The notes under the pieces: generated by a model | What the model was told of the DNA's origin: nothing | Databases searched by the model: none | The model's input: the letters and a program-made list of their open reading frames with translations, nothing else | Made by a program: the position numbers and the translations under genes | IMG/VR virus record: IMGVR_UViG_3300028045_000010 | Location: 8,060-72,059 of that record | Length of the DNA: 64,000 nucleotides | Source of the DNA: a virus | Direction: 5' to 3' (one strand) | In this document: positions 2,403 through 15,178 of the stretch, one piece after another | How positions within the stretch are numbered: the first letter of the stretch is position 1 | Layout of the letters: each line of letters begins with the position of its first letter

Positions 2403-4343
2403 TTACTCTCGAATAATTTTTAGGTCTCTTACTTCTTTGTATGAAATATCTTTATCTTCAAGGTATTTCATTACTTTCTTTTTCTGTCTATCTGATGCAA
2501 GTTTATTACACACTCCTTTTAATTGTTCAAACTCTAGCCCAGATTGGTTAATATTAAATCCAATCATAAATTCTTTTATTTCATCCAAACCTCTTTCGTC
2601 GCTTTTGTCGTAAATCATCATTAAAATATATCTTCCTTTACTTATTCTCGTTATGTATGAGCCTGCACAATTTTTTAAATCTTTTGCAGCATTTAAAACC
2701 ATTTTTGGAGTTGATAATAGTTTAATTTTTAAATTACCATCATATTCTTCTAGGTATTTAAATTTCTTTGCAAATTTTTTAAATTTTTCATTTTTTTCTT
2801 CATCACTTAACATATTATAATGTTCAACTATTTTATCATGATAAGAATTAATTTCGGATATTGTTTTTATTTTATTAAACTCTTTATTTCTATCCCAATT
2901 TAATCCATTAATCATCCTTATTGAATCATCATAATTATAAAAGCTAAATTGTTCTAAAAAAGAATAGTTTAATTTAACATCATCTAACTTTATTGATTTA
3001 TCTTCTAGGATTGCTGGACTTGAATCTTCTAGCGCATCTATTCCAGCCAACTCTTTCATTCTGCTTAAAGAATAAGATTCTTGAGATATGTTATGTTTTC
3101 TATTTACTAAAAAGTCTAATGTAAGAGGTATTATTTGCCTTAGACTTATCGTATTAATGTCATCTCTAAATTCTATTAATTTAAAAAGAGATATAATATA
3201 CTGTATATCATACTTCATCACTAGACTTATAAGCTCTTCATAAGTTATAAATTTAGTAAATTTTATCAAATTTTTATAGTCATCAAATTTTTCAATTTTA
3301 TTAAATATAAATTTTGATACAGATTTGTTTTTCAAATCTTCTCTAACATTAATTTTACCATCAGATATACTTACCTTACTATCTCCTTTAAATCCCCACC
3401 TTTTTAAGTCATAGAATATGCTTTTAGATTTTCCGTCCTTAGATTTATATATAAACTTTTCATCTTCTAGTGTTTCTGAATCTATTTCTTTTTGTATAAC
3501 TTCATTTTCTAATGAAACTAAAAAATTAAATATATTAATTGGTGATGTTACATTTTCATCTGACAAAACGGATACATTAGGTAATTTACAGCTATACATC
3601 ATATCATATAAAAAAACTGTACCCTTAGTTAATGCTATAGTGGATAGGTTTGAATAGCAAATTATACCAAAAAATATTGTATTTATTTTCATCATAATAT
3701 CCAACCCAGGCTTTCCTATCATTTGACTCATTAAACTTTCTACAATATCCATATTTTTAGAATCAACAACTAGACCAGCTAAATTATTTAAAAAATAATG
3801 TATTTCAACAAGATTATCTAGAACTGACAATTCTTCAGAGTTATAAAACTTTTCTAATATAAACAATAATTCATCTAAATTAAATTCTACTTTTTTGCTT
3901 TTTTCATATGATTTGTAAAAAATAGTTTTTTCTTTTTTGTTAATTGAAATATAAGATTCTAATTCTTTAAAGTTTACATATCTTGACTTCAAGGTGCAAG
4001 ATGATTTTATTTTTTTCTTATATAAAATTAACTCATCATCGTTATTATAACATTTAAAATATCCATAAAAATAAGAGTTTGATTCTTTAATTTTTTTTAG
4101 ATTCTTAGATTTAGAATAATTTATTTTACACTTTGGGCATATAACATTTATTGTAGAATCAAATTTATTCATTATATCCTCATCTAAATCTTCATCTAAT
4201 TCAATAGTTATTTCATCCTTTTTAGCTTTATTGTTTTCTTTAGTTATTTTTTTACCACAAGAACAGAAGTAAACTTCGTCTTCACCTTCTAAGTGATGAA
4301 AGCAAAAATGTTTTTTAATTTCTTTTAAATCTATATCAATCAT
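2403..4343 (-). CDS. PcfJ-domain-like protein with N-terminal Cys/His Zn sites
   Basis: C-terminal AAKDLKNCAGSY...QLKGVCN resembles the PcfJ motif; CFHH, CSCG and CPKC near the N-terminus. Confidence 0.55.
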   Translation of the reverse strand: MIDIDLKEIKKHFCFHHLEGEDEVYFCSCGKKITKENNKAKKDEITIELDEDLDEDIMNKFDSTINVICPKCKINYSKSKNLKKIKESNSYFYGYFKCYNNDDELILYKKKIKSSCTLKSRYVNFKELESYISINKKEKTIFYKSYEKSKKVEFNLDELLFILEKFYNSEELSVLDNLVEIHYFLNNLAGLVVDSKNMDIVESLMSQMIGKPGLDIMMKINTIFFGIICYSNLSTIALTKGTVFLYDMMYSCKLPNVSVLSDENVTSPINIFNFLVSLENEVIQKEIDSETLEDEKFIYKSKDGKSKSIFYDLKRWGFKGDSKVSISDGKINVREDLKNKSVSKFIFNKIEKFDDYKNLIKFTKFITYEELISLVMKYDIQYIISLFKLIEFRDDINTISLRQIIPLTLDFLVNRKHNISQESYSLSRMKELAGIDALEDSSPAILEDKSIKLDDVKLNYSFLEQFSFYNYDDSIRMINGLNWDRNKEFNKIKTISEINSYHDKIVEHYNMLSDEEKNEKFKKFAKKFKYLEEYDGNLKIKLLSTPKMVLNAAKDLKNCAGSYITRISKGRYILMMIYDKSDERGLDEIKEFMIGFNINQSGLEFEQLKGVCNKLASDRQKKKVMKYLEDKDISYKEVRDLKIIRE

Positions 4344-4497
4344 ATTTTAAATATTTTTCTATTATAACTTTTTTTCTATATACTTTTTTTTCTCTTTTAA
4401 TTTTAAGCATCCACAAATACTCCATTTCTCTTGATTGAATCAGTTCAATATTTGATTCAATCTTTGAATAATTATGATATAATTCTTTATTATCCAT
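4336..4497 (-). CDS. 53-aa small protein carrying the YKRxLLIE-like motif (VYRKKVIIEKY)
   Basis: Translated by hand (MDNKELYH...KKVYRKKVIIEKYLKYD); fills the gap between the flanking genes and overlaps the next start. Confidence 0.6.
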   Translation of the reverse strand: MDNKELYHNYSKIESNIELIQSREMEYLWMLKIKREKKVYRKKVIIEKYLKYD

Positions 4498-4500
4498 AAA

Positions 4501-5028
4501 TCACTTTAATCTATCTTTGGGAAATTTACTTCCAAATATAGCTTTAATCTTTTTTCTTTTACAGAATACGTCTACTTTTATTTTTTCTGAGTAATTTTTA
4601 GGGTCTTGACTTAGTGTCATTATTTCTCCTAAATTTATTTTTTCCATCAATGAAGAATTTCCAGAACGACATATTTCTATAATTTTTTTCTGGTCGTGTA
4701 TAGAGTTGCAAAGTTTAATCCACCCCATGTCAGCAGCTATATCTATATGTTGCAATGTATGACAAGATTTACATAATAGAACTATTTTATAAGAATCTAC
4801 ATTTTGCACATCACCAGAAACAACATGAATCTCTAAAAACTCTTTATCAAAAGGTCTTATTCTACATCCTTGACATGTATAGTTTTCCTCTTTCATAATA
4901 AAATCTTTTAATTCCTTCCAAGATTCATTACCAAGATAGTTTCTATATATTTTGTCTGGTTCGGATGTTTCTAAATTTAATTCAAAGTTCTTATCTATTA
5001 TAGATAATATGTTTTTATTTTTCAGCAA
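4501..5028 (-). CDS. HNH-like endonuclease-family protein
   Basis: CQGC...EIH...LLCKSCHTLQH Zn/HNH pattern. Confidence 0.65.
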   Translation of the reverse strand: MLKNKNILSIIDKNFELNLETSEPDKIYRNYLGNESWKELKDFIMKEENYTCQGCRIRPFDKEFLEIHVVSGDVQNVDSYKIVLLCKSCHTLQHIDIAADMGWIKLCNSIHDQKKIIEICRSGNSSLMEKINLGEIMTLSQDPKNYSEKIKVDVFCKRKKIKAIFGSKFPKDRLK

Positions 5029-5587
5029 ATCCTATTTTTATCTTATTGTCTATAGCCATTATATAACAGTTTTTATTTTCTTCAGATTTGTAAGTGTAAA
5101 AATTTGTGGATTTTGATTTTGATTTTTCTAAATTTTCCACATAATACTCTCCAATGTTTTCATCCTTTATGTTTGATTCAAATTTTTTTCTAGTTATTTT
5201 ATTTAACTTATCACTATCTTTAAGGTGTTTAAAATATATTTCATTATCTTTTTCTTCATTATTTAATTTTGAATTATAATCAAATTTATTAATGAAAAAT
5301 TTAGATAAATATTCTTGATTGTTTTCTAATATTTTCATAAATAAATTTATAACTTCATCTTTTGAAATATCACTAGATATCCATTCTATATTTATTTTAA
5401 TAAATTCTTTATAAATTTTATTATTATTTATAATTCCTTTTAAAAATTTTTCATCGAATGAAATTCCATTTTCATGAAAATAAATTCTAAATAAATCTAA
5501 TCCATTATCATTCCTAACAGTATAATGCCCTATGAGGTCTCCCAAATCTTTCATATCATGTTTTTTTTTAGTATAGCAAATGTACAA
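5015..5587 (-). CDS. hypothetical protein (true start possibly MKDLG, ~5554)
   Basis: Long ORF in an operon; a TATTTG promoter-like motif overlaps the annotated start. Confidence 0.6.
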   Translation of the reverse strand: MYICYTKKKHDMKDLGDLIGHYTVRNDNGLDLFRIYFHENGISFDEKFLKGIINNNKIYKEFIKINIEWISSDISKDEVINLFMKILENNQEYLSKFFINKFDYNSKLNNEEKDNEIYFKHLKDSDKLNKITRKKFESNIKDENIGEYYVENLEKSKSKSTNFYTYKSEENKNCYIMAIDNKIKIGFAEK

Positions 5588-5698
5588 ATATTTTGTTTTA
5601 GAACAAAATTAAAAACCTTATTTAAAAAAGTCAATTTTTGTTTTTTTTTTCTATTTATATGTATCAGAAGAAAATATATTAATTAAATATTTAATAAA

Positions 5699-6733
5699 AT
5701 GAAAATTACTAAAGACGAGCTTGTTAACATGATTAAGGAAGAAGCTTCAAAATTGAAACAAAAAACCATACAAGAAGCAGAAGCGATAAGTGCTTCAGTT
5801 AACGTATATGATGTTGACATGAATTCGAATGATGAATTAGGAGATTCAGATAAAGCGCTAGCATATAAAGACCCATCTAAAAAGATAGAAAAATCAGGTG
5901 AATCTGCAAAGATGCCAAAAATGAACCAAAAAGATAATGACCAAGGTTCTGATAAAAAAGCTGCTGTTGCAGTTAAGGTTGATGCTGGTTCTAAAAAGGG
6001 TGGCTCAAGCCACACTGCTGGTCAGGCTAAAGCTAATTTTACTTCTAAGAAAGATGTTCAATCAACAAAGGCTTCTGGGCCATTTGATGATAGAGTTAAT
6101 GATTTAAAAATGAACTCTGAAGATAAGGTTGTAGATAAAGAAGTTAAGACTTACGTTTCTGCTGGAGCTGAAAAGTCTGGTCACTCTCACACTGCTGGTC
6201 AAGCCAAAGCTGAGGTTCATGAAAGAATGCCAGAAAAAGATGCTGAAGAGCCAACTGATAGAATCGCTGCTGGAATAGAAATTGATGGAACTAATGTAGA
6301 TTTAAAAGAGTCTTATACTAAATCTGGATTAAAGTCTTTTATATTATCAGAAGCTAAAAAAGCTGCTAAAAACTATTCTGAAAATCAAATTAAAGATGCT
6401 AAAAAATTAGAGCTAGAAAAAGAACTCTCTTTGGTTATGGAAAGCTTAGAAGAGTGTGGCGTATCAATGGAAGAAGGCATTTTTGGAGCTAGCAAAAAAG
6501 AGAAAGAGGAAATGAAAAAAACTCTTGAAATAGAGATTGATAAACTTCTTGCAGCAAATCCAAATATAGGCAATGAATGGAAAGGTATAATCATGAAGCA
6601 AGCAGAAGATTCTGGATATGCAGGTGAAGTTAAGCCTCACGAAACATCTAAAGGTAAGTATGCGGGACAAAAAATTCTTCACTGGACCAAGTCAGCTACT
6701 TCTGCTGGTGGTTTCAATACTCCAAGATATTGA
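5699..6733 (+). CDS. putative head-internal/scaffold-like protein with MKITxxEL..IKEEA leader
   Basis: Charged protein; leader shared with 7239 and 19316; internal repeat xAGxxKxGxSHTAGQAKA. Confidence 0.6.
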   Translation: MKITKDELVNMIKEEASKLKQKTIQEAEAISASVNVYDVDMNSNDELGDSDKALAYKDPSKKIEKSGESAKMPKMNQKDNDQGSDKKAAVAVKVDAGSKKGGSSHTAGQAKANFTSKKDVQSTKASGPFDDRVNDLKMNSEDKVVDKEVKTYVSAGAEKSGHSHTAGQAKAEVHERMPEKDAEEPTDRIAAGIEIDGTNVDLKESYTKSGLKSFILSEAKKAAKNYSENQIKDAKKLELEKELSLVMESLEECGVSMEEGIFGASKKEKEEMKKTLEIEIDKLLAANPNIGNEWKGIIMKQAEDSGYAGEVKPHETSKGKYAGQKILHWTKSATSAGGFNTPRY

Positions 6734-6748
6734 TTTAACATAAACACA

Positions 6749-6790
6749 TAAATAAAAAAAGCGACTCAATAGGTCGCTTTTTTTATTTAT
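6749..6790. terminator. bidirectional intrinsic terminator
   Basis: taaataaaaaaagcgac-tcaatag-gtcgctttttttattta between convergent genes. Confidence 0.8.
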
Positions 6791-6799
6791 TTATAATTT

Positions 6800-7102
6800 T
6801 TATTTAGATTTTATATCTTCAATACTTTTATAAACACTTTCCATAAACCAATAACTATTTGTGTGAAATTTTAAATAATTATAAGAGAGTATTGTTTGTT
6901 GAATAAACACTAATAGTATTAGTCCAAAAAGAATGGGAGGAATTATTCCTAAAAGCGGAAGGAAAAATGTATATAATGTAATTGCAAGAAAAAATATTAA
7001 ACTAATTATAGAGAATTTTAGTTTACTTTTATATTTTAGAACTAAATTTATTTTGTCTTGTCTTTGTTCTTTTTTTAATTGTATAGTTTTTAAATTTTCC
7101 AT
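6800..7102 (-). CDS. small two-TM membrane protein
   Basis: Two hydrophobic segments; similar layout and C-terminus to 8092..8475. Confidence 0.65.
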   Translation of the reverse strand: MENLKTIQLKKEQRQDKINLVLKYKSKLKFSIISLIFFLAITLYTFFLPLLGIIPPILFGLILLVFIQQTILSYNYLKFHTNSYWFMESVYKSIEDIKSK

Positions 7103-7238
7103 AATAATATTAATTTAATTTATATGTTATTTTAATAAATATATATATTAAACGAATATTAAACAAAAACATTACATAATAATGAAAATAATTTTTTTAT
7201 AACTATTTAATATTATAAAACATTAAAAATTCATAGAA

Positions 7239-8027
7239 ATGAAAATTACAACATCTGAATTAAAACAAATAATAAAAGAAGAAGCTGAAAGGTTTGCTAA
7301 AATAAAAACTTTATCAATAGAAAAAAATAAAATAGAAAATCAAATCAATGAAATGTACAATGAAGATGTTGATGAAAATGAATCTGTTGAAGAATCTGTT
7401 GAAGAATCTGTTGAAGAATCTATGGAAGAAGGAATTGAAGGTATGGAGCTAACAGAGCCAGTATCAGTAGAAAGTGGTGAAGAAAGTGGTGAAGATAATG
7501 TAGATGAATCTAATAGTATAGAAGAAGGTCAGATTACTGACACTATTAAGGATTGGTTTAGCAAAGAAGGAACTAATGTAGAAGATGCGTTAAAAAAATT
7601 ACAAGAACATGTAATTAAAATGATAGAATCTCATGACATGCCAAATGAAGCAAAAGAGAAATTGAAAAAGGGAGCTGAAGGATTGGCTAAGAAATTATAT
7701 GACAAGGCTTCTGGTGCAATTTATGACTATGAACCATACATTCATTATTATCCAGCTAAGAAAGCTGAGGGGAGCCGAAAAGGTAGAGAAGAGCAGTGGC
7801 AATTTCGAGTTAGGAAAGCAGAGCCAAAAAGTCCTTGGTTAAAAGCTTTACAAATTATGGTTGGTGCAGCCTCAGACGACCTTAAAGGTAGGGGTTTGAA
7901 TTACGCAGAAGGTGTAGAAGAAGGAAATATTCAAGAGGCCGTTAAGTCAGAAGTTAAAAAAGCAATTAAAGCTGAAAAACTTAAAAGCAGAGCTCAAGAA
8001 ATTATAAAAGAAATGAAATCTTTATAG
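7239..8027 (+). CDS. putative head-internal acidic protein with MKITxxEL..IKEEA leader
   Basis: Leader matches 5699; EESV repeats. Confidence 0.6.
   Translation: MKITTSELKQIIKEEAERFAKIKTLSIEKNKIENQINEMYNEDVDENESVEESVEESVEESMEEGIEGMELTEPVSVESGEESGEDNVDESNSIEEGQITDTIKDWFSKEGTNVEDALKKLQEHVIKMIESHDMPNEAKEKLKKGAEGLAKKLYDKASGAIYDYEPYIHYYPAKKAEGSRKGREEQWQFRVRKAEPKSPWLKALQIMVGAASDDLKGRGLNYAEGVEEGNIQEAVKSEVKKAIKAEKLKSRAQEIIKEMKSL
7381..7421 (+). repeat. 12-bp tandem repeat (gaagaatctgtt) encoding EESV
   Basis: About 3.5 copies visible in the sequence. Confidence 0.8.
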
Positions 8028-8040
8028 TACAATCTAAATT

Positions 8041-8085
8041 ATAAATAAAAAAGCCCAAATTAATAGTTTGGGCTTTTTTATTTAT
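8041..8085. terminator. bidirectional intrinsic terminator
   Basis: ataaataaaaaagcccaaa-ttaatag-tttgggcttttttatttat. Confidence 0.8.
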
Positions 8086-8091
8086 AATTAA

Positions 8092-8475
8092 TTAATCATA
8101 TTTTTCAATATCTTTTTCCATACTATTAAAAGTTATATTTGAAATAATTTGCATCTTTTTTTGTATAAAAACTCCTCTACACCATTTTATTGTTAAATAT
8201 ACAAACATTAAAGATATTGGTAATAAAATGTAGAAAGATACATTACATATATTTTCTCCAAAAATATTATGACTAAAGTCTAATGTTGAAGAATAAAGCA
8301 TAAATGAAAAAAACAATAAATTAATAGAAACTTCCTTTAGAATTCTTTTTGCTCTTTTTTCTGAATCTTTAAAAGATGAAATACAATTATCTTTAAATTC
8401 TTTTCTTATTTCTTTTTTATCTTTTTCCATAATATTATATTTTATTGTTATAATAAATAAACGTAAATTATACAA
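8092..8475 (-). CDS. small two-TM membrane protein (probable start MEKDK, ~8430)
   Basis: Two hydrophobic stretches; last gene of the 9693-8092 operon. Confidence 0.6.
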   Translation of the reverse strand: MYNLRLFIITIKYNIMEKDKKEIRKEFKDNCISSFKDSEKRAKRILKEVSINLLFFSFMLYSSTLDFSHNIFGENICNVSFYILLPISLMFVYLTIKWCRGVFIQKKMQIISNITFNSMEKDIEKYD

Positions 8476-8480
8476 AAATA

Positions 8481-8753
8481 TTACAAATCACCGAAAATAT
8501 TTCTCATTTGTTCTGCACTCTCTATCTGTATAGGCTCACTAAGTGGACCTACTGCTCTAGAGATGATTCCTATAGTCGCATTATGAGTTGAAGGGCTTAC
8601 AACTAAATCATAACTTATAACACTAATATCATTTTCTCTAATATAAACTCCAGGACTAATAAATTTTTGTGGTGAATATAGTTCAATTAATAACTTCCTT
8701 TTATATACTGTTGATTGAAATTTTAAATGTTTTATCATATTACTCTTGCTCAT
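8481..8753 (-). CDS. mini-protein: YKRKLLIE motif + N-terminal fragment of a gp18-type tail sheath
   Basis: FISPGVYIREND...GPLSEPIQIESAEQMRNIFG resembles the conserved sheath N-terminus (T4 gp18 LSPGIELKE...WGPAFQIKQVTNEVDLVNTFG). Confidence 0.75.
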   Translation of the reverse strand: MSKSNMIKHLKFQSTVYKRKLLIELYSPQKFISPGVYIRENDISVISYDLVVSPSTHNATIGIISRAVGPLSEPIQIESAEQMRNIFGDL

Positions 8754-8760
8754 GGTTCAA

Positions 8761-9102
8761 TCAAATTTTATCTAGAAAAGAATCTTGAAATCTACGTCCA
8801 CCTCTCCTTCTACTCCTTCTACTCTTAGGTTTTTTATAAGTTTCAATTAATAACACCCTCTTATATAAATCTTCATGATAATGGAGTATACCAGCTGGCA
8901 GTTCCATTGGCTGAACAGAAACTAAATCATTTCCTATAGTATTGGCCATCACTCGTCTTGCTACAGGAAATGTAAATGCTCCAACCTCAATGCAAAAGCT
9001 TTTCTTTTCAATAAGAAGCTCTCTCTTATATATGTTTTCATTTTTTGGATGAACTAATTCATACCACCTAGACAATGCTTTATGTACTGACAAATCACTC
9101 AA
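8761..9102 (-). CDS. mini-protein: gp23-type major capsid fragment (Gol-equivalent region) flanked by two YKRxLLIE motifs, Arg-rich tail
   Basis: AFTFPVARRVMANTIGNDLVSVQPMELPAG resembles T4 gp23 AVMGMVRRAIPNLIAFDICGVQPMNSPTG. Confidence 0.75.
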   Translation of the reverse strand: MSDLSVHKALSRWYELVHPKNENIYKRELLIEKKSFCIEVGAFTFPVARRVMANTIGNDLVSVQPMELPAGILHYHEDLYKRVLLIETYKKPKSRRSRRRGGRRFQDSFLDKI

Positions 9103-9368
9103 TTAATTATTTTTATAAGTCCTGATTTTACACATTTTTCTATATTTTCAAAAGTCATAAAGTTATATCTATGAGAAACTGGTGGGCTGCTTGTAAACCA
9201 GGAATTATAACAACCTTCATTTTCAGGAGGGTTTACATCTTCACTATAGAAATATACCATATTCCTATTGATTTTCCATATGTAGAATTTTTTATTTAAA
9301 ATATTATTATAAATTCCACTAAATGTAATAAATGGAAAATATTCTATTATTAAATTTCTTTTACTCAT
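9099..9368 (-). CDS. mini-protein with N-terminal KRNLIIEY motif; rest unassigned
   Basis: Overlaps both neighbouring ORFs; motif variant at the N-terminus. Confidence 0.6.
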   Translation of the reverse strand: MSKRNLIIEYFPFITFSGIYNNILNKKFYIWKINRNMVYFYSEDVNPPENEGCYNSWFTSSPPVSHRYNFMTFENIEKCVKSGLIKIIN

Positions 9369-9693
9369 TCTGTAAGTTTATTAAATTACCTAAGATTTCT
9401 CTATCAATTTCTTGAGCTAATTGTCTTGATAGCATATCTGTTAGTTCAGCTTCAACATCAAATGGATTAAATTTTTTTGGTACATACTTTTCAATTAATA
9501 ATATTTTTTTATATACATTCTCAGGCTCTTCAGGCTCATAACTATGAGTATAGTAGTCTAAATCTTGAGCAAGTTCAGGAGTCCAAGAACATCTTAAACG
9601 TCTAGTTTCTCCTGTTACTTGAACAGAAGTTAGTTTTAAAGAAATCTCCCTAACCTTTTCTATTAAAAGATTTCTTTTAAATACAGTATCCAT
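9361..9693 (-). CDS. mini-protein: gp23-type major capsid fragment interrupted by a YKKILLIEKY motif
   Basis: RRLRCSWTPELAQDL...DVEAELTDMLSRQLAQEIDREIL resembles T4 gp23 RQLKAAYSIELAQDL...DADAELSGILATEIMLEINREVV. Confidence 0.8.
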   Translation of the reverse strand: MDTVFKRNLLIEKVREISLKLTSVQVTGETRRLRCSWTPELAQDLDYYTHSYEPEEPENVYKKILLIEKYVPKKFNPFDVEAELTDMLSRQLAQEIDREILGNLINLQNE

Positions 9694-10348: not shown

Positions 10349-10627
10349 GTGTCTATGAAAGATAAAGTTAAACGTATATTTTTACAAACATTTGCAACTC
10401 ATATAGGCAGAATAATGTTTGGTGCACTATTGTCAATAGTAGGCGGTATTATGACTCCTAACGGAACTATTGGAGAGTTAATTTACAATTACGATGAGGG
10501 TGGATTTTGGAAAGTGCTGTTTTATATAGGAGTGATTTTATTTACTGGTGAATGTCTTTTGTTTATAGCGTATGGTCTAATCATAAATCCAATCAAAAGT
10601 CTTATAAAGAAAATAAAGAATAAATAA
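10349..10627 (+). CDS. small two-TM membrane protein
   Basis: Two hydrophobic helices and a basic C-terminus. Confidence 0.65.
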   Translation: MSMKDKVKRIFLQTFATHIGRIMFGALLSIVGGIMTPNGTIGELIYNYDEGGFWKVLFYIGVILFTGECLLFIAYGLIINPIKSLIKKIKNK

Positions 10628-10654
10628 TATACATTTATTTAATATTTTAAAAAA

Positions 10655-10889
10655 CACCAAAGACGAGCGTAACCCAAATTCTGTTTCAATTTCATCATTT
10701 ATCTATTGGCCACTTACCCGACCCTTAGCATTGCTCACCTGCAGGTCTGTTTGTGTTGCATCCTCGGAAGTGCAAACGTGCGCTTATGAACTTAATCACT
10801 TGCCCCTCACTCCTTCCTTAAGCAAAGATGTTTGGAGTTTCCTCTCTTCCCAAATATGGGTTAGAGCGATGAATCCTCTTTCTTTGATG
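10655..10889 (-). ncRNA. rnpB: minimal RNase P RNA (~235 nt)
   Basis: Minus strand has GAGGAAACUCCAAAC and AUAGAUAAAUGA...ACAGAAUUUGGGUUAC. P4 (AAC-U-CCAAA/UUUGGGUU with bulged U), P1 (CAUCAAAGA/UCUUUGGUG), P2 (UUCAUC/GAUGAA), P3 and P5 all pair. Confidence 0.85.
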
Positions 10890-11163
10890 TTTTTTCTGTT
10901 AAAAGTTTTTTTTCATATCTATCATAATGACCTGCAAAAAGAAGTTCTAATTTGGCCATTTCTTCTATACTAAAATCATAACTGCCAGATAGCATGTGTT
11001 TTGATTTACTTTTTGTAAATCCTACTTTTTTAGACAAGTCTTCTGTTGTCATTTTCTTCTTGGAAAGATATGCCCTTATATTATCAGCAATATTAGCAGA
11101 GTAAATGTGAAATCTAACTTGCCAATCAGGTGCTTGATTTAATAAGTTTCTATCTTCTTTCAT
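10861..11163 (-). CDS. XRE/Cro-like HTH protein with C-terminal YEKKLLTEK motif variant
   Basis: NIRAYLSKKKMTTEDLSKKVGFTKS...HMLSG. Confidence 0.65.
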   Translation of the reverse strand: MKEDRNLLNQAPDWQVRFHIYSANIADNIRAYLSKKKMTTEDLSKKVGFTKSKSKHMLSGSYDFSIEEMAKLELLFAGHYDRYEKKLLTEKTSKKEDSSL

Positions 11164-11167
11164 TTCA

Positions 11168-11566
11168 TTAGTTTAGAATAGATTTAATAATTTCAGAAAC
11201 AACTTTATTGTCAGCTTGACCTTTAAAGTTCTTATTAAATTCTCCCATTATTTGTCCTATGTTATTTAGCCCATTATGCATATAATTAGTTACAATTTCC
11301 TTAATTCTTTCTTCATCCATTTGTGCAGGCAAATAAGGAGCAATATATTCTAATTCTTTCTTAGACTCTTCTGTGCCTGTTTGTTTTAAAGACTTTTCCA
11401 TTTTCTTTAAAATTTTTAAAACATTTTCATCAGTTGATTCTGTTCCTCTTCCCTCTTGTAATTGAATTTCTCCCCTTACAACTCCAAGAAAATTTTTTTT
11501 ATCTAAATTTTTAGCCTTAAAAGCATCCATAAAATCTTTAGATATTCTATTTTTTAAATTACTCAT
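11168..11566 (-). CDS. YqeY/GatB-domain tRNA-binding-like protein
   Basis: LKNRISKDFMDAFKAK...YLPAQMDEE...GQIMG...GQADNKVVS. Confidence 0.8.
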   Translation of the reverse strand: MSNLKNRISKDFMDAFKAKNLDKKNFLGVVRGEIQLQEGRGTESTDENVLKILKKMEKSLKQTGTEESKKELEYIAPYLPAQMDEERIKEIVTNYMHNGLNNIGQIMGEFNKNFKGQADNKVVSEIIKSILN

Positions 11567-13459: not shown

Positions 13460-13954
13460 TTATGTTACTATTCCAACATAAACATTCCAAGATTCATGAA
13501 CTTTTTTAAATTTTTCAACAAAATATAAATAAGTTGGTCTAAAAGGCTCATGACTCATATTCATACCAGCTTCTTCTGGTGTCTTGTTGTCTTTTTTTGT
13601 ATTACAAGAACTACAGCAACTAACTAAATTAATCCACCTATTTTTCCCTCCTCTAGACTTAGGCATAACATGGTCAATGGTTAAATTTTCTTTATCACCA
13701 CAATATATACACTTATAATCATCTCTTCTAAAAATGTTTTCTCTAGATAGATTAACTTTTCTAAAAGGAACAGAAATGTATCTTAATAACCTTATTACAG
13801 TAGGTCTTTTATAATTTTTTCTAGAAGTAACTATAGGCATTTCAGATAAGTGCTCTACTATTTCTGCCTTACCTTTAAACACTAAATTAAATCCTCTTAT
13901 TAAAGTTGTAACGTTTATCGGCTGATAAGCGTTGTTCAATACCAATACTTGCAT
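13460..13954 (-). CDS. HNH endonuclease (McrA/HNH_5-like)
   Basis: VLVLNNAYQP...RENIFRRDDYKCIYCG...LTIDHVMPKSRGG...WINLVSCCSSCN. Confidence 0.9.
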   Translation of the reverse strand: MQVLVLNNAYQPINVTTLIRGFNLVFKGKAEIVEHLSEMPIVTSRKNYKRPTVIRLLRYISVPFRKVNLSRENIFRRDDYKCIYCGDKENLTIDHVMPKSRGGKNRWINLVSCCSSCNTKKDNKTPEEAGMNMSHEPFRPTYLYFVEKFKKVHESWNVYVGIVT

Positions 13955-14008: not shown

Positions 14009-14087
14009 TTGCGATTTCAAGATTCGAACTTGACAGGGGGATATCTCCCAAAAAGGCTCATGAGACCTTCCTTACACCATTATCGCA
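14009..14087 (-). tRNA. atypical tRNA(CAT): D-arm nearly absent, long variable arm
   Basis: Acceptor UGCGAU/AUCGCA; anticodon arm AAGGU-CUCAUGA-GCCUU; T arm UCAAG-UUCGAAU-CUUGA. Confidence 0.55.
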
Positions 14088-14094
14088 ATTTTAG

Positions 14095-14167
<73 letters not shown>

Positions 14168-14182
14168 ATATATTTTACACTG

Positions 14183-14256
14183 TTGCGATGGAGAGAATTG
14201 AACTCCCAGCCTCAGGGTTATGATTCCTGCGCTCTAACCAATTGAGCTACATCGCA
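14183..14256 (-). tRNA. tRNA(CAT), elongator Met or Ile2
   Basis: Cloverleaf UGCGAUG/CAUCGCA, loop AUCAUAA. Confidence 0.8.
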
Positions 14257-14264
14257 ATAAAGTA

Positions 14265-14350
14265 ATGCTATGTGTGGCTCCATCGGTCTCTGCTCCTTTA
14301 CCGCAGATTTAAATAACTGGGGCAGACATTGTACCACATACATATAGCAT
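14265..14350 (-). ncRNA. unassigned rod-like structured RNA inside the tRNA array
   Basis: Ends pair (AUGCUAU...GUGG / CCAC...AUAGCAU), with inner GUCUGC/GCAG-GAC pairing. Confidence 0.5.
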
Positions 14351-14356
14351 CACTAG

Positions 14357-14429
14357 TGGGAATGGATGGAATCGAACCATCGACACATGGATTTTCAGTC
14401 CATTGCTCTACCAACTGAGCTACATCCCC
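14357..14429 (-). tRNA. tRNA-Phe(GAA)
   Basis: Canonical cloverleaf; AUGGA-CUGAAAA-UCCAU. Confidence 0.95.
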
Positions 14430-14434
14430 ATTTG

Positions 14435-14521
14435 TAGGAGTAGAGGGATTCGAACCCACGTTAACCAATAAAGGCCTCTTGCATGTAAAACAAGCGCTCT
14501 AACCAACTGAGCTATACTCCT
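14435..14521 (-). tRNA. tRNA-Val(TAC) with expanded variable arm
   Basis: CUUGU-UUUACAU-GCAAG; 18-nt variable region AGGCCUUUAUUGGUUAAC. Confidence 0.8.
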
Positions 14522-14525
14522 ATTG

Positions 14526-14598
14526 CGCTCCCTCTTGGATTTGAACCAAGGACCCCTCGCTTAACAGGCGAACGCTCTAACCACTGAGCTAAAGAAGC
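14526..14598 (-). tRNA. tRNA-Asn(GTT)
   Basis: Cloverleaf; loop CUGUUAA; G73. Confidence 0.9.
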
Positions 14599-14599
14599 A

Positions 14600-14674
14600 T
14601 GGCGGACGGTGGGGGATTTGAACCCCGACCTTTTGCGTGACAGGCAAATATGCAACCATTACACCACACCATCC
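14600..14674 (-). tRNA. tRNA-Asp(GTC), CCA encoded
   Basis: UUUGC-CUGUCAC-GCAAA; ends GCCA. Confidence 0.9.
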
Positions 14675-14681
14675 ATAATTG

Positions 14682-14756
14682 GGTAGGAAATGAGATTCGA
14701 ACTCACGACCCTCGACACCACAAATCGATGCTCTAACCAACTGAGCTATTCCTACC
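14682..14756 (-). tRNA. tRNA-His(GTG) with G-1
   Basis: UCGAU-UUGUGGU-GUCGA; G-1:C73. Confidence 0.9.
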
Positions 14757-14762
14757 ATATAT

Positions 14763-14981
14763 GTCTACGGAAATTATACTAGTAATTTCGTGCTCTACCA
14801 ATTGAGCTATCTCCCCATTTTATATGCATTCACGTATGTATAATATACCCGTTTGGGTATAATTTTATATGCATTCACGTATAATATACCCGTTTGGGTA
14901 TATTTTGTGGGGAGAGTAGGATTCGAACCTACACACCGTCGTTTACAGCGAATAGAAGTATCTAAATATATAGCCGTAGAC
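14763..14981 (-). ncRNA. permuted tRNA-Tyr(GTA)-like RNA / YrlA-type Y RNA
   Basis: The 3' tRNA half (14908-14951) lies upstream of the 5' half (14789-14816); termini GUCUACGG/CCGUAGAC pair. Confidence 0.75.
14817..14902. repeat. two ~41-45 bp direct repeats, each with an atatacccgtttgggtata hairpin
   Basis: attttatatgcattcacgta(tgta)taatatacccgtttgggtata occurs twice. Confidence 0.85.
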
Positions 14982-15016
14982 AATATTTTAATTTCAAAGA
15001 ACGTTTTCTTTTTCTG

Positions 15017-15089
15017 TCCCCCCGACAAGATTCGAACTTGTGACTTTCCGCTTAAAAGGCGGAAGCTCTACCAGCTGAGCTACGAGGGA
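15017..15089 (-). tRNA. tRNA-Lys(TTT)
   Basis: UCCGC-CUUUUAA-GCGGA. Confidence 0.9.
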
Positions 15090-15095
15090 ATGTTG

Positions 15096-15178
15096 AGGAG
15101 AAAGAGAGATTCGAACTCTCGCAACATTTCTGTCGTACACCTTAGCAGGGTGCTGCATTACCGCTCTGCCACTTCTCC
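15096..15178 (-). tRNA. tRNA-Ser(GCT)
   Basis: GCACC-CUGCUAA-GGUGU; long variable arm. Confidence 0.9.

Follow-up and report, generated by a model that had tools for sequence, protein, structure and literature searches.

A reduced RNase P-like RNA of a large marine phage belongs to a phage-borne family linked to tRNA genes

A gene for a reduced RNase P-like RNA is present on the minus strand of a large uncultured marine tailed phage, at positions 10647..10900 of the window (the whole 64,000-nt stretch of DNA that was analysed). The reality of the RNA gene is held with high confidence. The RNA is a homologue of the RNase P ribozyme, which trims new tRNAs, with the catalytic-domain fold conserved including both pseudoknots, and it is one of a family that is carried by phages and linked to tRNA genes. 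The catalytic domain is kept (P1-P5 with the bulged-U P4, the P6 pseudoknot, P15-P17, J5/15, the L15 GGU, J18/2 and J2/4), while P18 and all of the specificity domain save a short conserved stub are lost. The original prediction had proposed a phage-encoded, reduced RNase P RNA, and this is now borne out by homology, by family-wide covariation that extends to the pseudoknots and by the phage context. The reading we favour, and consider likely, is that the gene is real and encodes a reduced RNase P RNA derived from the bacterial type A form, a member of a phage-borne family that cuts pre-tRNAs together with the host protein RnpA.

The window comes from an IMG/VR virus record of 72 kb, for which CheckV gives a completeness of 22%. 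Phage genes within it include those for a helicase, an endolysin, an SbcC-like protein and a baseplate component, and the same stretch is found in seawater metagenomes from several studies; none of the runs listed for it is an RNA run. The G+C content of the RNA is 0.41, against 0.30 for the window. A relative of the window, L114, is a 79-kb contig with a G+C content of 0.29.

When cmscan was run with an E-value threshold, the best-scoring Rfam family was RF00010 (RNaseP_bact_a), matched at 10654-10886(-) with 47.5 bits and an E-value of 1.2e-13 that refers to the 551 nt searched in this permissive scan (10500-11050). The match spans the model from end to end (positions 1-367). The covariance-model check suggested with the original prediction thus gives RF00010, below its gathering score of 100 bits. 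A default Rfam scan of the window returned nine tRNAs only and no RNase P match because 47.5 bits lies under that score. Searching the window's own record with RF00010 gave no candidate either, the initial filter of that search being blind to this RNA. The gene measures 233 nt by Rfam (the core, 10654-10886) and 254 nt by model R1 (289 bits; see below), whose outer bounds of 10647..10900 take in an extended P1; a length of about 235 nt had been predicted. Consensus elements kept are GAGGAAA-UCC, J5/15 GCAA, L15 CGGGUA, J18/2 AGAU.AAUG, J2/4 ACAGAA and the P4 3' strand, so that all the catalytic-domain landmarks originally claimed can be placed on the minus strand in the RF00010 alignment.

P1 is formed by AAAAAACAUCAAAGA..GAG (10876..10895), within the last codons of the upstream HTH-like open reading frame, and CUC.UCUUUGGUGUUUUUU (10649..10667, from the helix alignment). 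In the family P1 is 85% paired, with double changes at 18 of 18 pairs. P2, a helix of 6 bp, joins UUCAUC (10868..10873) to GAUGAA (10691-10696); it is 98.6% paired and five of its six pairs covary in the family alignment. The P3 hairpin (CUCU AA CCC / GGG A AGAG, 10844..10866) is 97% paired and holds the UAA stop codon of the HTH gene; its CCC/GGG pairing is replaced by AUC/GAU in L114. CR-I and the P4 5' strand follow as GAGGA AAC[U]CCAAA with a bulged U (10831..10844), and J2/4 ACAGAA followed by the P4 3' strand, UUUGGGUU, occupies 10671..10684 in the RF00010 alignment. P4, which is 100% paired, joins AAC[U]CCAAA (10839-10831) to UUUGGGUU (10678-10671). All of its differences from the consensus AAG[U]CCGGg/cCCGGCUU are compensated, in agreement with the compensatory P4 changes that had been reported from the sequence, and the helix in the window is unusually A-U rich, with G-C at three of eight pairs.

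P5 pairs CAUC (10827..10830) with GAUG (10759-10762); it is 100% paired, with covariation at three of four pairs in the family alignment. The P6 pseudoknot, in which loop L17 pairs with the strand 3' of P5, is a type A trait and is present as UUGCUU (10820..10825) with GAGCAA (10731-10736). By alignment, J5/15 (CAA), P15 (CAC/GUG), P16 (GACCU/GGGUC), P17 (GCA/UGC) and L15 (CGGGUAA) lie within 10711..10758. P15, P16 and P17 are 100%, 92.7% and 91.7% paired, respectively, with covariation in all three. The L15 internal loop, CGGGUAA at 10714-10720, aligns to the consensus CGGGUA and contains the GGU that pairs with the tRNA 3'-CCA in bacterial RNase P. J18/2 is CCAAUAGAUAAAU (10697..10710 in the RF00010 alignment). 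P18 is absent, a single nucleotide replacing 23 model positions in the RF00010 alignment. A plus-strand open reading frame at 10731-10973 was set aside as a coding reading because the pairing and covariation of this region fit an RNA.

Between the two P5 strands there are 64 nt, in place of a specificity domain (P7-P14) of roughly 140 nt; about 60 nt had been estimated. In the Rfam alignment 17, 16 and 27 nt sit where there are about 140 specificity-domain model positions, and the sequence is unrelated to P7-P14 with its conserved junctions. The specificity domain reads the elbow formed by the T- and D-loops. The stub that stands in its place (10766..10817, minus strand) consists of a GGAAG/CUUCC base helix, a GAG motif, a variable hairpin and CGUUUGCAC. 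The base helix is 97.5% paired and covaries at five of five pairs in the family alignment, and the motif G[GA]AG-hairpin-C[GA][CU]UNNNAC occurs in 14 of 25 members; the variable hairpin is poorly defined in the window copy. It is a speculation that the UNNNA of the stub could be T-loop-like. Two other loci have very long insertions in the stub, of about 186 nt (L125, 3185-3544) and about 151 nt (L120, 4386-4691).

Searching for relatives with an exact 15-mer from P4, GAGGAAACTCCAAAC, gave 93 loci in IMG/VR, with the partner P4 strand in none of the 93; these loci were rejected as chance matches. Nor did blastn with 'distant' settings find a match in INPHARED for the window RNA or for the RNA of locus L137. 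IMG/VR was then searched with four degenerate patterns in which the variable P4 positions were left free. The first gave 18 loci, five of them real (L103 is a duplicate of L095), the second 17 loci (12 new; seven real and five chance), the third 19 (15 new) and the fourth five (three new). A script that required an upstream P4 5' strand with at least seven of eight pairs, together with a GGA motif, passed 27 loci and the window. All of these were paired at eight of eight positions with the bulged U, and about 20 different P4 sequences were present among them. Scores of relatives against RF00010 were 80.3 bits (L095), 74.7 (L102), 71.7 (L110), 65.9 (L112), 44.4 (L114) and 43.0 (L099). The only relative that scored past the gathering score was L121 (120.2 bits), and for L119 (38.6 bits) and L120 (62.9 bits) the best match was an archaeal RNase P model.

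Model R1 was built from an alignment of the window, L114 and L119 and has 49 nested pairs; P4 and P6, being pseudoknots, were left out of its structure. It was run over the window and 47 loci (476 kb, with L103 omitted as the duplicate of L095). At E ≤ 0.01 there were 25 matches, namely the window (289 bits, 10647-10900) and 24 of the 47 other IMG/VR loci. No match was obtained in the 18 loci judged to be chance pattern matches, nor in L112, L120, L121, L132 or L140, and there was no second match in the window.

Applying the third degenerate pattern to 596 Gb of prokaryotic species genomes gave 22 loci, of which five are real by R1. These five are on MAG contigs of 7-36 kb and adjoin tRNA genes; they are therefore probably phage contigs that have been binned with prokaryotes. 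Members close to L110 are also carried by the cultured Microbacterium phages A3Wally, Big4 and Zooman and by a fourth record. In A3Wally (L166; MZ150783.1, 93855-94070) the member fills an unannotated gap of 216 nt between tRNA-Pro(ccg) and tRNA-Pro(cct) and matches L110 at 99.5% identity across 221 nt. Since A3Wally is in culture, an experimental system already exists. Genes for an HNH endonuclease and an RNA ligase are also found near the A3Wally member.

Covariation was assessed on an Infernal alignment of 25 sequences (A6), used because MAFFT alignments misalign P1-P3 of the distant members, and pairs were counted with P4 and P6 added. In A6, 93.4% of cells are paired, compared with 63.2 ± 1.0% in shuffles (none of 500 as high) and 35-40% in controls with slid partners. 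Changes on both sides are seen at 54 of 65 pairs, and the covariation score is 0.527 against 0.137 in the control. As A6 was fitted to R1, these values are biased towards the structure for the nested helices; P4 is free of that bias, and it is paired at eight of eight positions in 24 of 24 sequences, with six pairs covarying and two invariant. P1, P2, P3, P5, P15, P16 and P17 are each 85-100% paired with double changes. P6, which is poorly aligned in distant members, is 79% paired in A6. When the segment after P5 was compared with loop L17 independently of the alignment, at least five contiguous pairs were found in 16 of 19 evaluable members, in at least nine sequence versions. A single-sequence fold of the window RNA was no better than shuffles (z = -0.52) and its minimum free energy structure misses the fold, this kind of prediction being uninformative for a pseudoknotted RNA.

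Comparison of the window with L114 reveals compensatory changes in P1, P3, P4 and the stub. DNA identity between the two is 85.5% in the 5' part of the RNA and 89.7% in its 3' part, compared with 70.4% for the HTH gene, 47.6% for the variable stub hairpin and 44.7% for the downstream spacer. In the contigs of four seawater DNA runs from four studies, the variants listed within the RNA are three substitutions and an insertion, and all four are compatible with the structure: an A>G change in P4 gives G.U, a C>U change in P3 gives U.G, one change is in the P3 loop, and an A inserted at the P16/P17 junction is also present in L114 and L119. Among the variants listed, the density per 100 nt is 1.2 in the RNA, 4.9 in the HTH gene and 6.0 in the YqeY gene, a weak comparison given its dependence on listed variants and on uneven cover by divergent contigs. 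The structure of the RNA is under purifying selection. It is very improbable that the RNA is what is left of a host rnpB gene that was captured and is now decaying without any function: the sub-threshold Rfam score and the large deletions of P18 and the specificity domain would suit decay, but 24 further viral loci share these deletions and this core, with abundant compensatory change, conservation between the window and L114 is far higher in the core than in the flanking genes, and the population variants are structure-neutral.

Upstream of the RNA on the same strand are a weakly HTH-like open reading frame of 100 aa (10861..11163; Pfam HTH_26, marginal at E = 2.5e-4 and 21.7 bits against a cut-off of 22) and a YqeY-domain gene (11168..11566; Pfam E = 7.6e-19), which confirms the position downstream of a YqeY gene that had been proposed. 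The HTH-like frame overlaps the first 26-40 nt of the RNA, its last ~13 codons lying over P1-P3, as had also been noted from the sequence. The order YqeY-HTH-RNA is common to the window and L114, where the HTH protein is 66% and the YqeY protein 89% identical and the 5' end of the RNA again falls within the last codons of the HTH gene. YqeY is found in two of five large records, and it adjoins the RNA in one of 33 other member loci (L114). It was therefore rejected as a functional partner; the neighbour is lineage-specific and its adjacency is no evidence of a functional link. A promoter scan gave six promoter-like sites where 6.1 were expected, with nothing above shuffles, and a terminator scan gave none. 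A peptide motif, YKR(K/E/V)LLIE(K/T), recurs in small open reading frames at 8481-9693(-) and in their L114 homologues (6404-7422); the HTH protein has a similar YEKKLLTEK.

The presumed substrates are encoded by a tRNA array (14094..15178, minus strand) with nine called tRNAs. The RNA is 3.2 kb downstream of it on the same strand, behind the YqeY and HTH genes, matching the distance of ~3 kb given earlier. Family-wide, the nearest same-strand tRNA gene is no more than 100 nt from the RNA in 15 of 23 evaluable relatives and 150-1084 nt away in six, including L114 and L119; two (L125 and L136) have no tRNA gene within 2.7 kb. The 3.2 kb of the window thus falls at the upper end of the distances in the family. 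The original prediction had also raised the possibility that the RNA is adapted to non-canonical tRNAs. For this there is no support, as the nine called tRNAs are canonical (56-76 bits) and the relatives are embedded among ordinary tRNA genes. CCA is encoded by one of the nine genes only (Asp).

A split tRNA-like element at 14763-14990(-) is uncalled by ARAGORN and Rfam. Inside an 8-bp closing stem (GUCUACGG...CCGUAGAC) the T-arm and 3' acceptor strand (UCUCCCCA) come first, about 90 nt with two direct repeats come next, and the 5' acceptor strand GGGGAGA and D-arm come last, so that the 3' half precedes the 5' half. Conservation of the element does not extend to the L114 or L119 records, which gave a 30-nt generic match only, and both of these carry the RNA, which counts against adaptation to this element.

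Other features of the arrays were seen along the way. Just after the last tRNA-Met of the window, a second uncalled tRNA-like stretch (~14010-14093, minus strand) has acceptor-like TTGCGAT/ATCGCAA pairing and a GTTCGAATC T-loop, in a region 90% identical to L114 1-373. An HNH endonuclease gene (13460-13954, minus strand; Pfam HNH_5, E = 1.5e-15) follows directly after the tRNA array, and an HNH gene is also within the array of A3Wally. In the 115-kb IMG/VR contig L102, a mini RNase P RNA shares one tRNA region (2438-9151) with a tmRNA and a GOLLD RNA (199.7 bits), and L121 and L135 also have tmRNA genes close to their RNase P-like RNAs. ARAGORN called a tRNA with anticodon CTA in L134 (4924-4996), labelled Pyl, that would read the amber stop, and tRNAs with a two-letter 'anticodon' in L126 (8264-8338) and L135 (8257-8334); all three arrays contain a mini RNase P RNA.

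In relation to RF00010, which includes rnpB and the E. coli M1 RNA, the phage RNA has the same P1-P6 and P15-P17 helices, the same bulged-U P4 and the same GAGGAAA, J5/15 GCAA, L15 CGGGUA, J18/2 AGAU.AAUG and J2/4 ACAGAA. It differs in its size (233-254 nt, where the bacterial consensus has 367 positions), in the absence of P18 and of P7-P14 (replaced by the 64-nt stub), in the compensated changes of P4 and in its score below the gathering threshold. It is also phage-encoded, with no rnpA gene found.

A cellular RNA with a comparable reduction is type T of the Thermoproteaceae (Pyrobaculum and relatives), which works with archaeal proteins; the window RNA is phage-borne. Most of the specificity domain is missing in both, and standard Rfam models missed both. 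According to the available text on type T, it has a 3-bp P2 and a 2-nt linker between P5 and P15 (PMC3579882), and, in the portion of a second paper that was to hand, P18 is absent and P6 is predicted (PMC5839562). The P2 of the phage RNA is 6 bp and its linker 3 nt (CAA, between GAUG and CAC), and its best match is the bacterial model, whereas the catalytic domain of type T is archaeal-type. An archaeal type T identity was rejected on these traits, and the resemblance is therefore one of convergent reduction rather than membership.

Closest in architecture is a laboratory construct, Eco CP RPR, which like the phage RNA has the catalytic domain but no specificity domain. As reported in the accessible part of PMC5839562, the E. 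coli catalytic domain is active without the specificity domain at a rate loss of about 120-fold, P18 is dispensable in it and P6-type pairing matters. What the phage RNA has lost and retained (P18 and P6, respectively) matches these needs. The phage RNA, a putative ribozyme, is natural and has a conserved stub motif.

Among viruses, the only RNase P-like RNA found in the literature searched is that of camelpox. From what is available of PMC3001073, this orthopoxvirus RNA has some secondary-structure similarity only and does not process pre-tRNA. It belongs to a eukaryotic virus, has no tRNA gene context and is unrelated to the phage family. No description of a phage or viral RNase P RNA was found in the full-text literature searched, in which few subscription journals are covered, and the sections available of a 2024 review of RNase P mention phages only as sources of substrates (PMC11143913).

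A search for RnpA (PF00825) found none in the window's record (~22% complete) or in five other records that carry the RNA, three of which are at least 90% complete; control genomes gave matches. Reliance on host RnpA is consistent with this absence from six records, and a catalytic role for the RNA is probable. The RNA would be transcribed with or behind the YqeY and HTH genes, fold into the catalytic core and remove the 5' leaders of the phage pre-tRNAs, which are closely spaced. Cleavage is proposed because the E. coli RNA is active without its specificity domain, going by the portion of that work available (PMC5839562). The holoenzyme would most likely be a hybrid with the host's RnpA, since no phage RnpA gene was seen; a phage protein cofactor may be encoded in the rest of the genome, of which the record covers about 22%.

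The same absence bears on the first alternative, that the RNA is a non-catalytic mimic that soaks up host RnpA or pre-tRNAs and so throttles or redirects the maturation of host tRNAs. Because the phage records have no RnpA gene, any protein partner with which the RNA must deal would be the host's, and the loss of the specificity domain would also suit a mimic. There is a viral precedent in the camelpox RNA, discussed as a possible decoy and reported to be inactive in the available part of its description (PMC3001073). However, a decoy for RnpA needs no L15 GGU, J5/15, J18/2, J2/4 or bulged U, nor a strict P4 and P6, all of which are conserved or show covariation in 24-25 members. In 15 of 23 relatives the RNA is embedded between tRNA genes, which suits a processing role instead, and we regard the mimic as unlikely.

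Slightly less probable again is an active ribozyme that cuts mainly something other than ordinary tRNAs, with phage mRNAs, tmRNA or tRNA-like RNAs such as that at 14763-14990 as candidates, the loss of the elbow-reading domain having widened or shifted its specificity. The missing specificity domain, the 3.2 kb between the window copy and the array, the tmRNA and GOLLD genes near relatives and the tRNA-like element in the window would all be in keeping with such substrates. Against them, most relatives directly adjoin canonical tRNA genes, the split element, unlike the RNA, lacks conservation in L114 and L119, and the CCA-binding motif of L15 is retained. The cutting of pre-tRNAs with host RnpA remains the reading that we prefer.

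A broader and more tentative possibility, which we put forward with well under even confidence, is that large phages carry an elbow-blind RNase P that uses host RnpA, or no protein at all, for tRNA maturation under phage control. If this is true, the supply of phage tRNAs would be independent of host rnpB, for example after shut-off of host RNA or against tRNA-directed defences, and the enzyme would cope with tRNA-like substrates that are tightly packed or unusual. It would be the first catalytically active virus-encoded ribozyme of the translation apparatus known and a natural minimal bacterial-type RNase P, in which the stub motif (GAG / CGYUNNNAC) would be a compact replacement for the specificity domain.

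To our knowledge, the RNA of RNase P has been seen as a housekeeping ribozyme of cells and organelles only. Viruses carry translation-related genes such as those for tRNAs, tmRNA and aminoacyl-tRNA synthetases, and a widespread phage-borne form of RNase P RNA would add a catalytic RNA to these. Standard annotation misses such mini RNase P genes, as the gap in the deposited genome of A3Wally illustrates. The family would provide a natural 'catalytic domain only' enzyme of bacterial type, in which nature appears to have reached the solution of the laboratory deletion studies, with P18 lost and P6 kept, and it opens the testable question of hybrid enzymes made of a phage RNA and a host protein.
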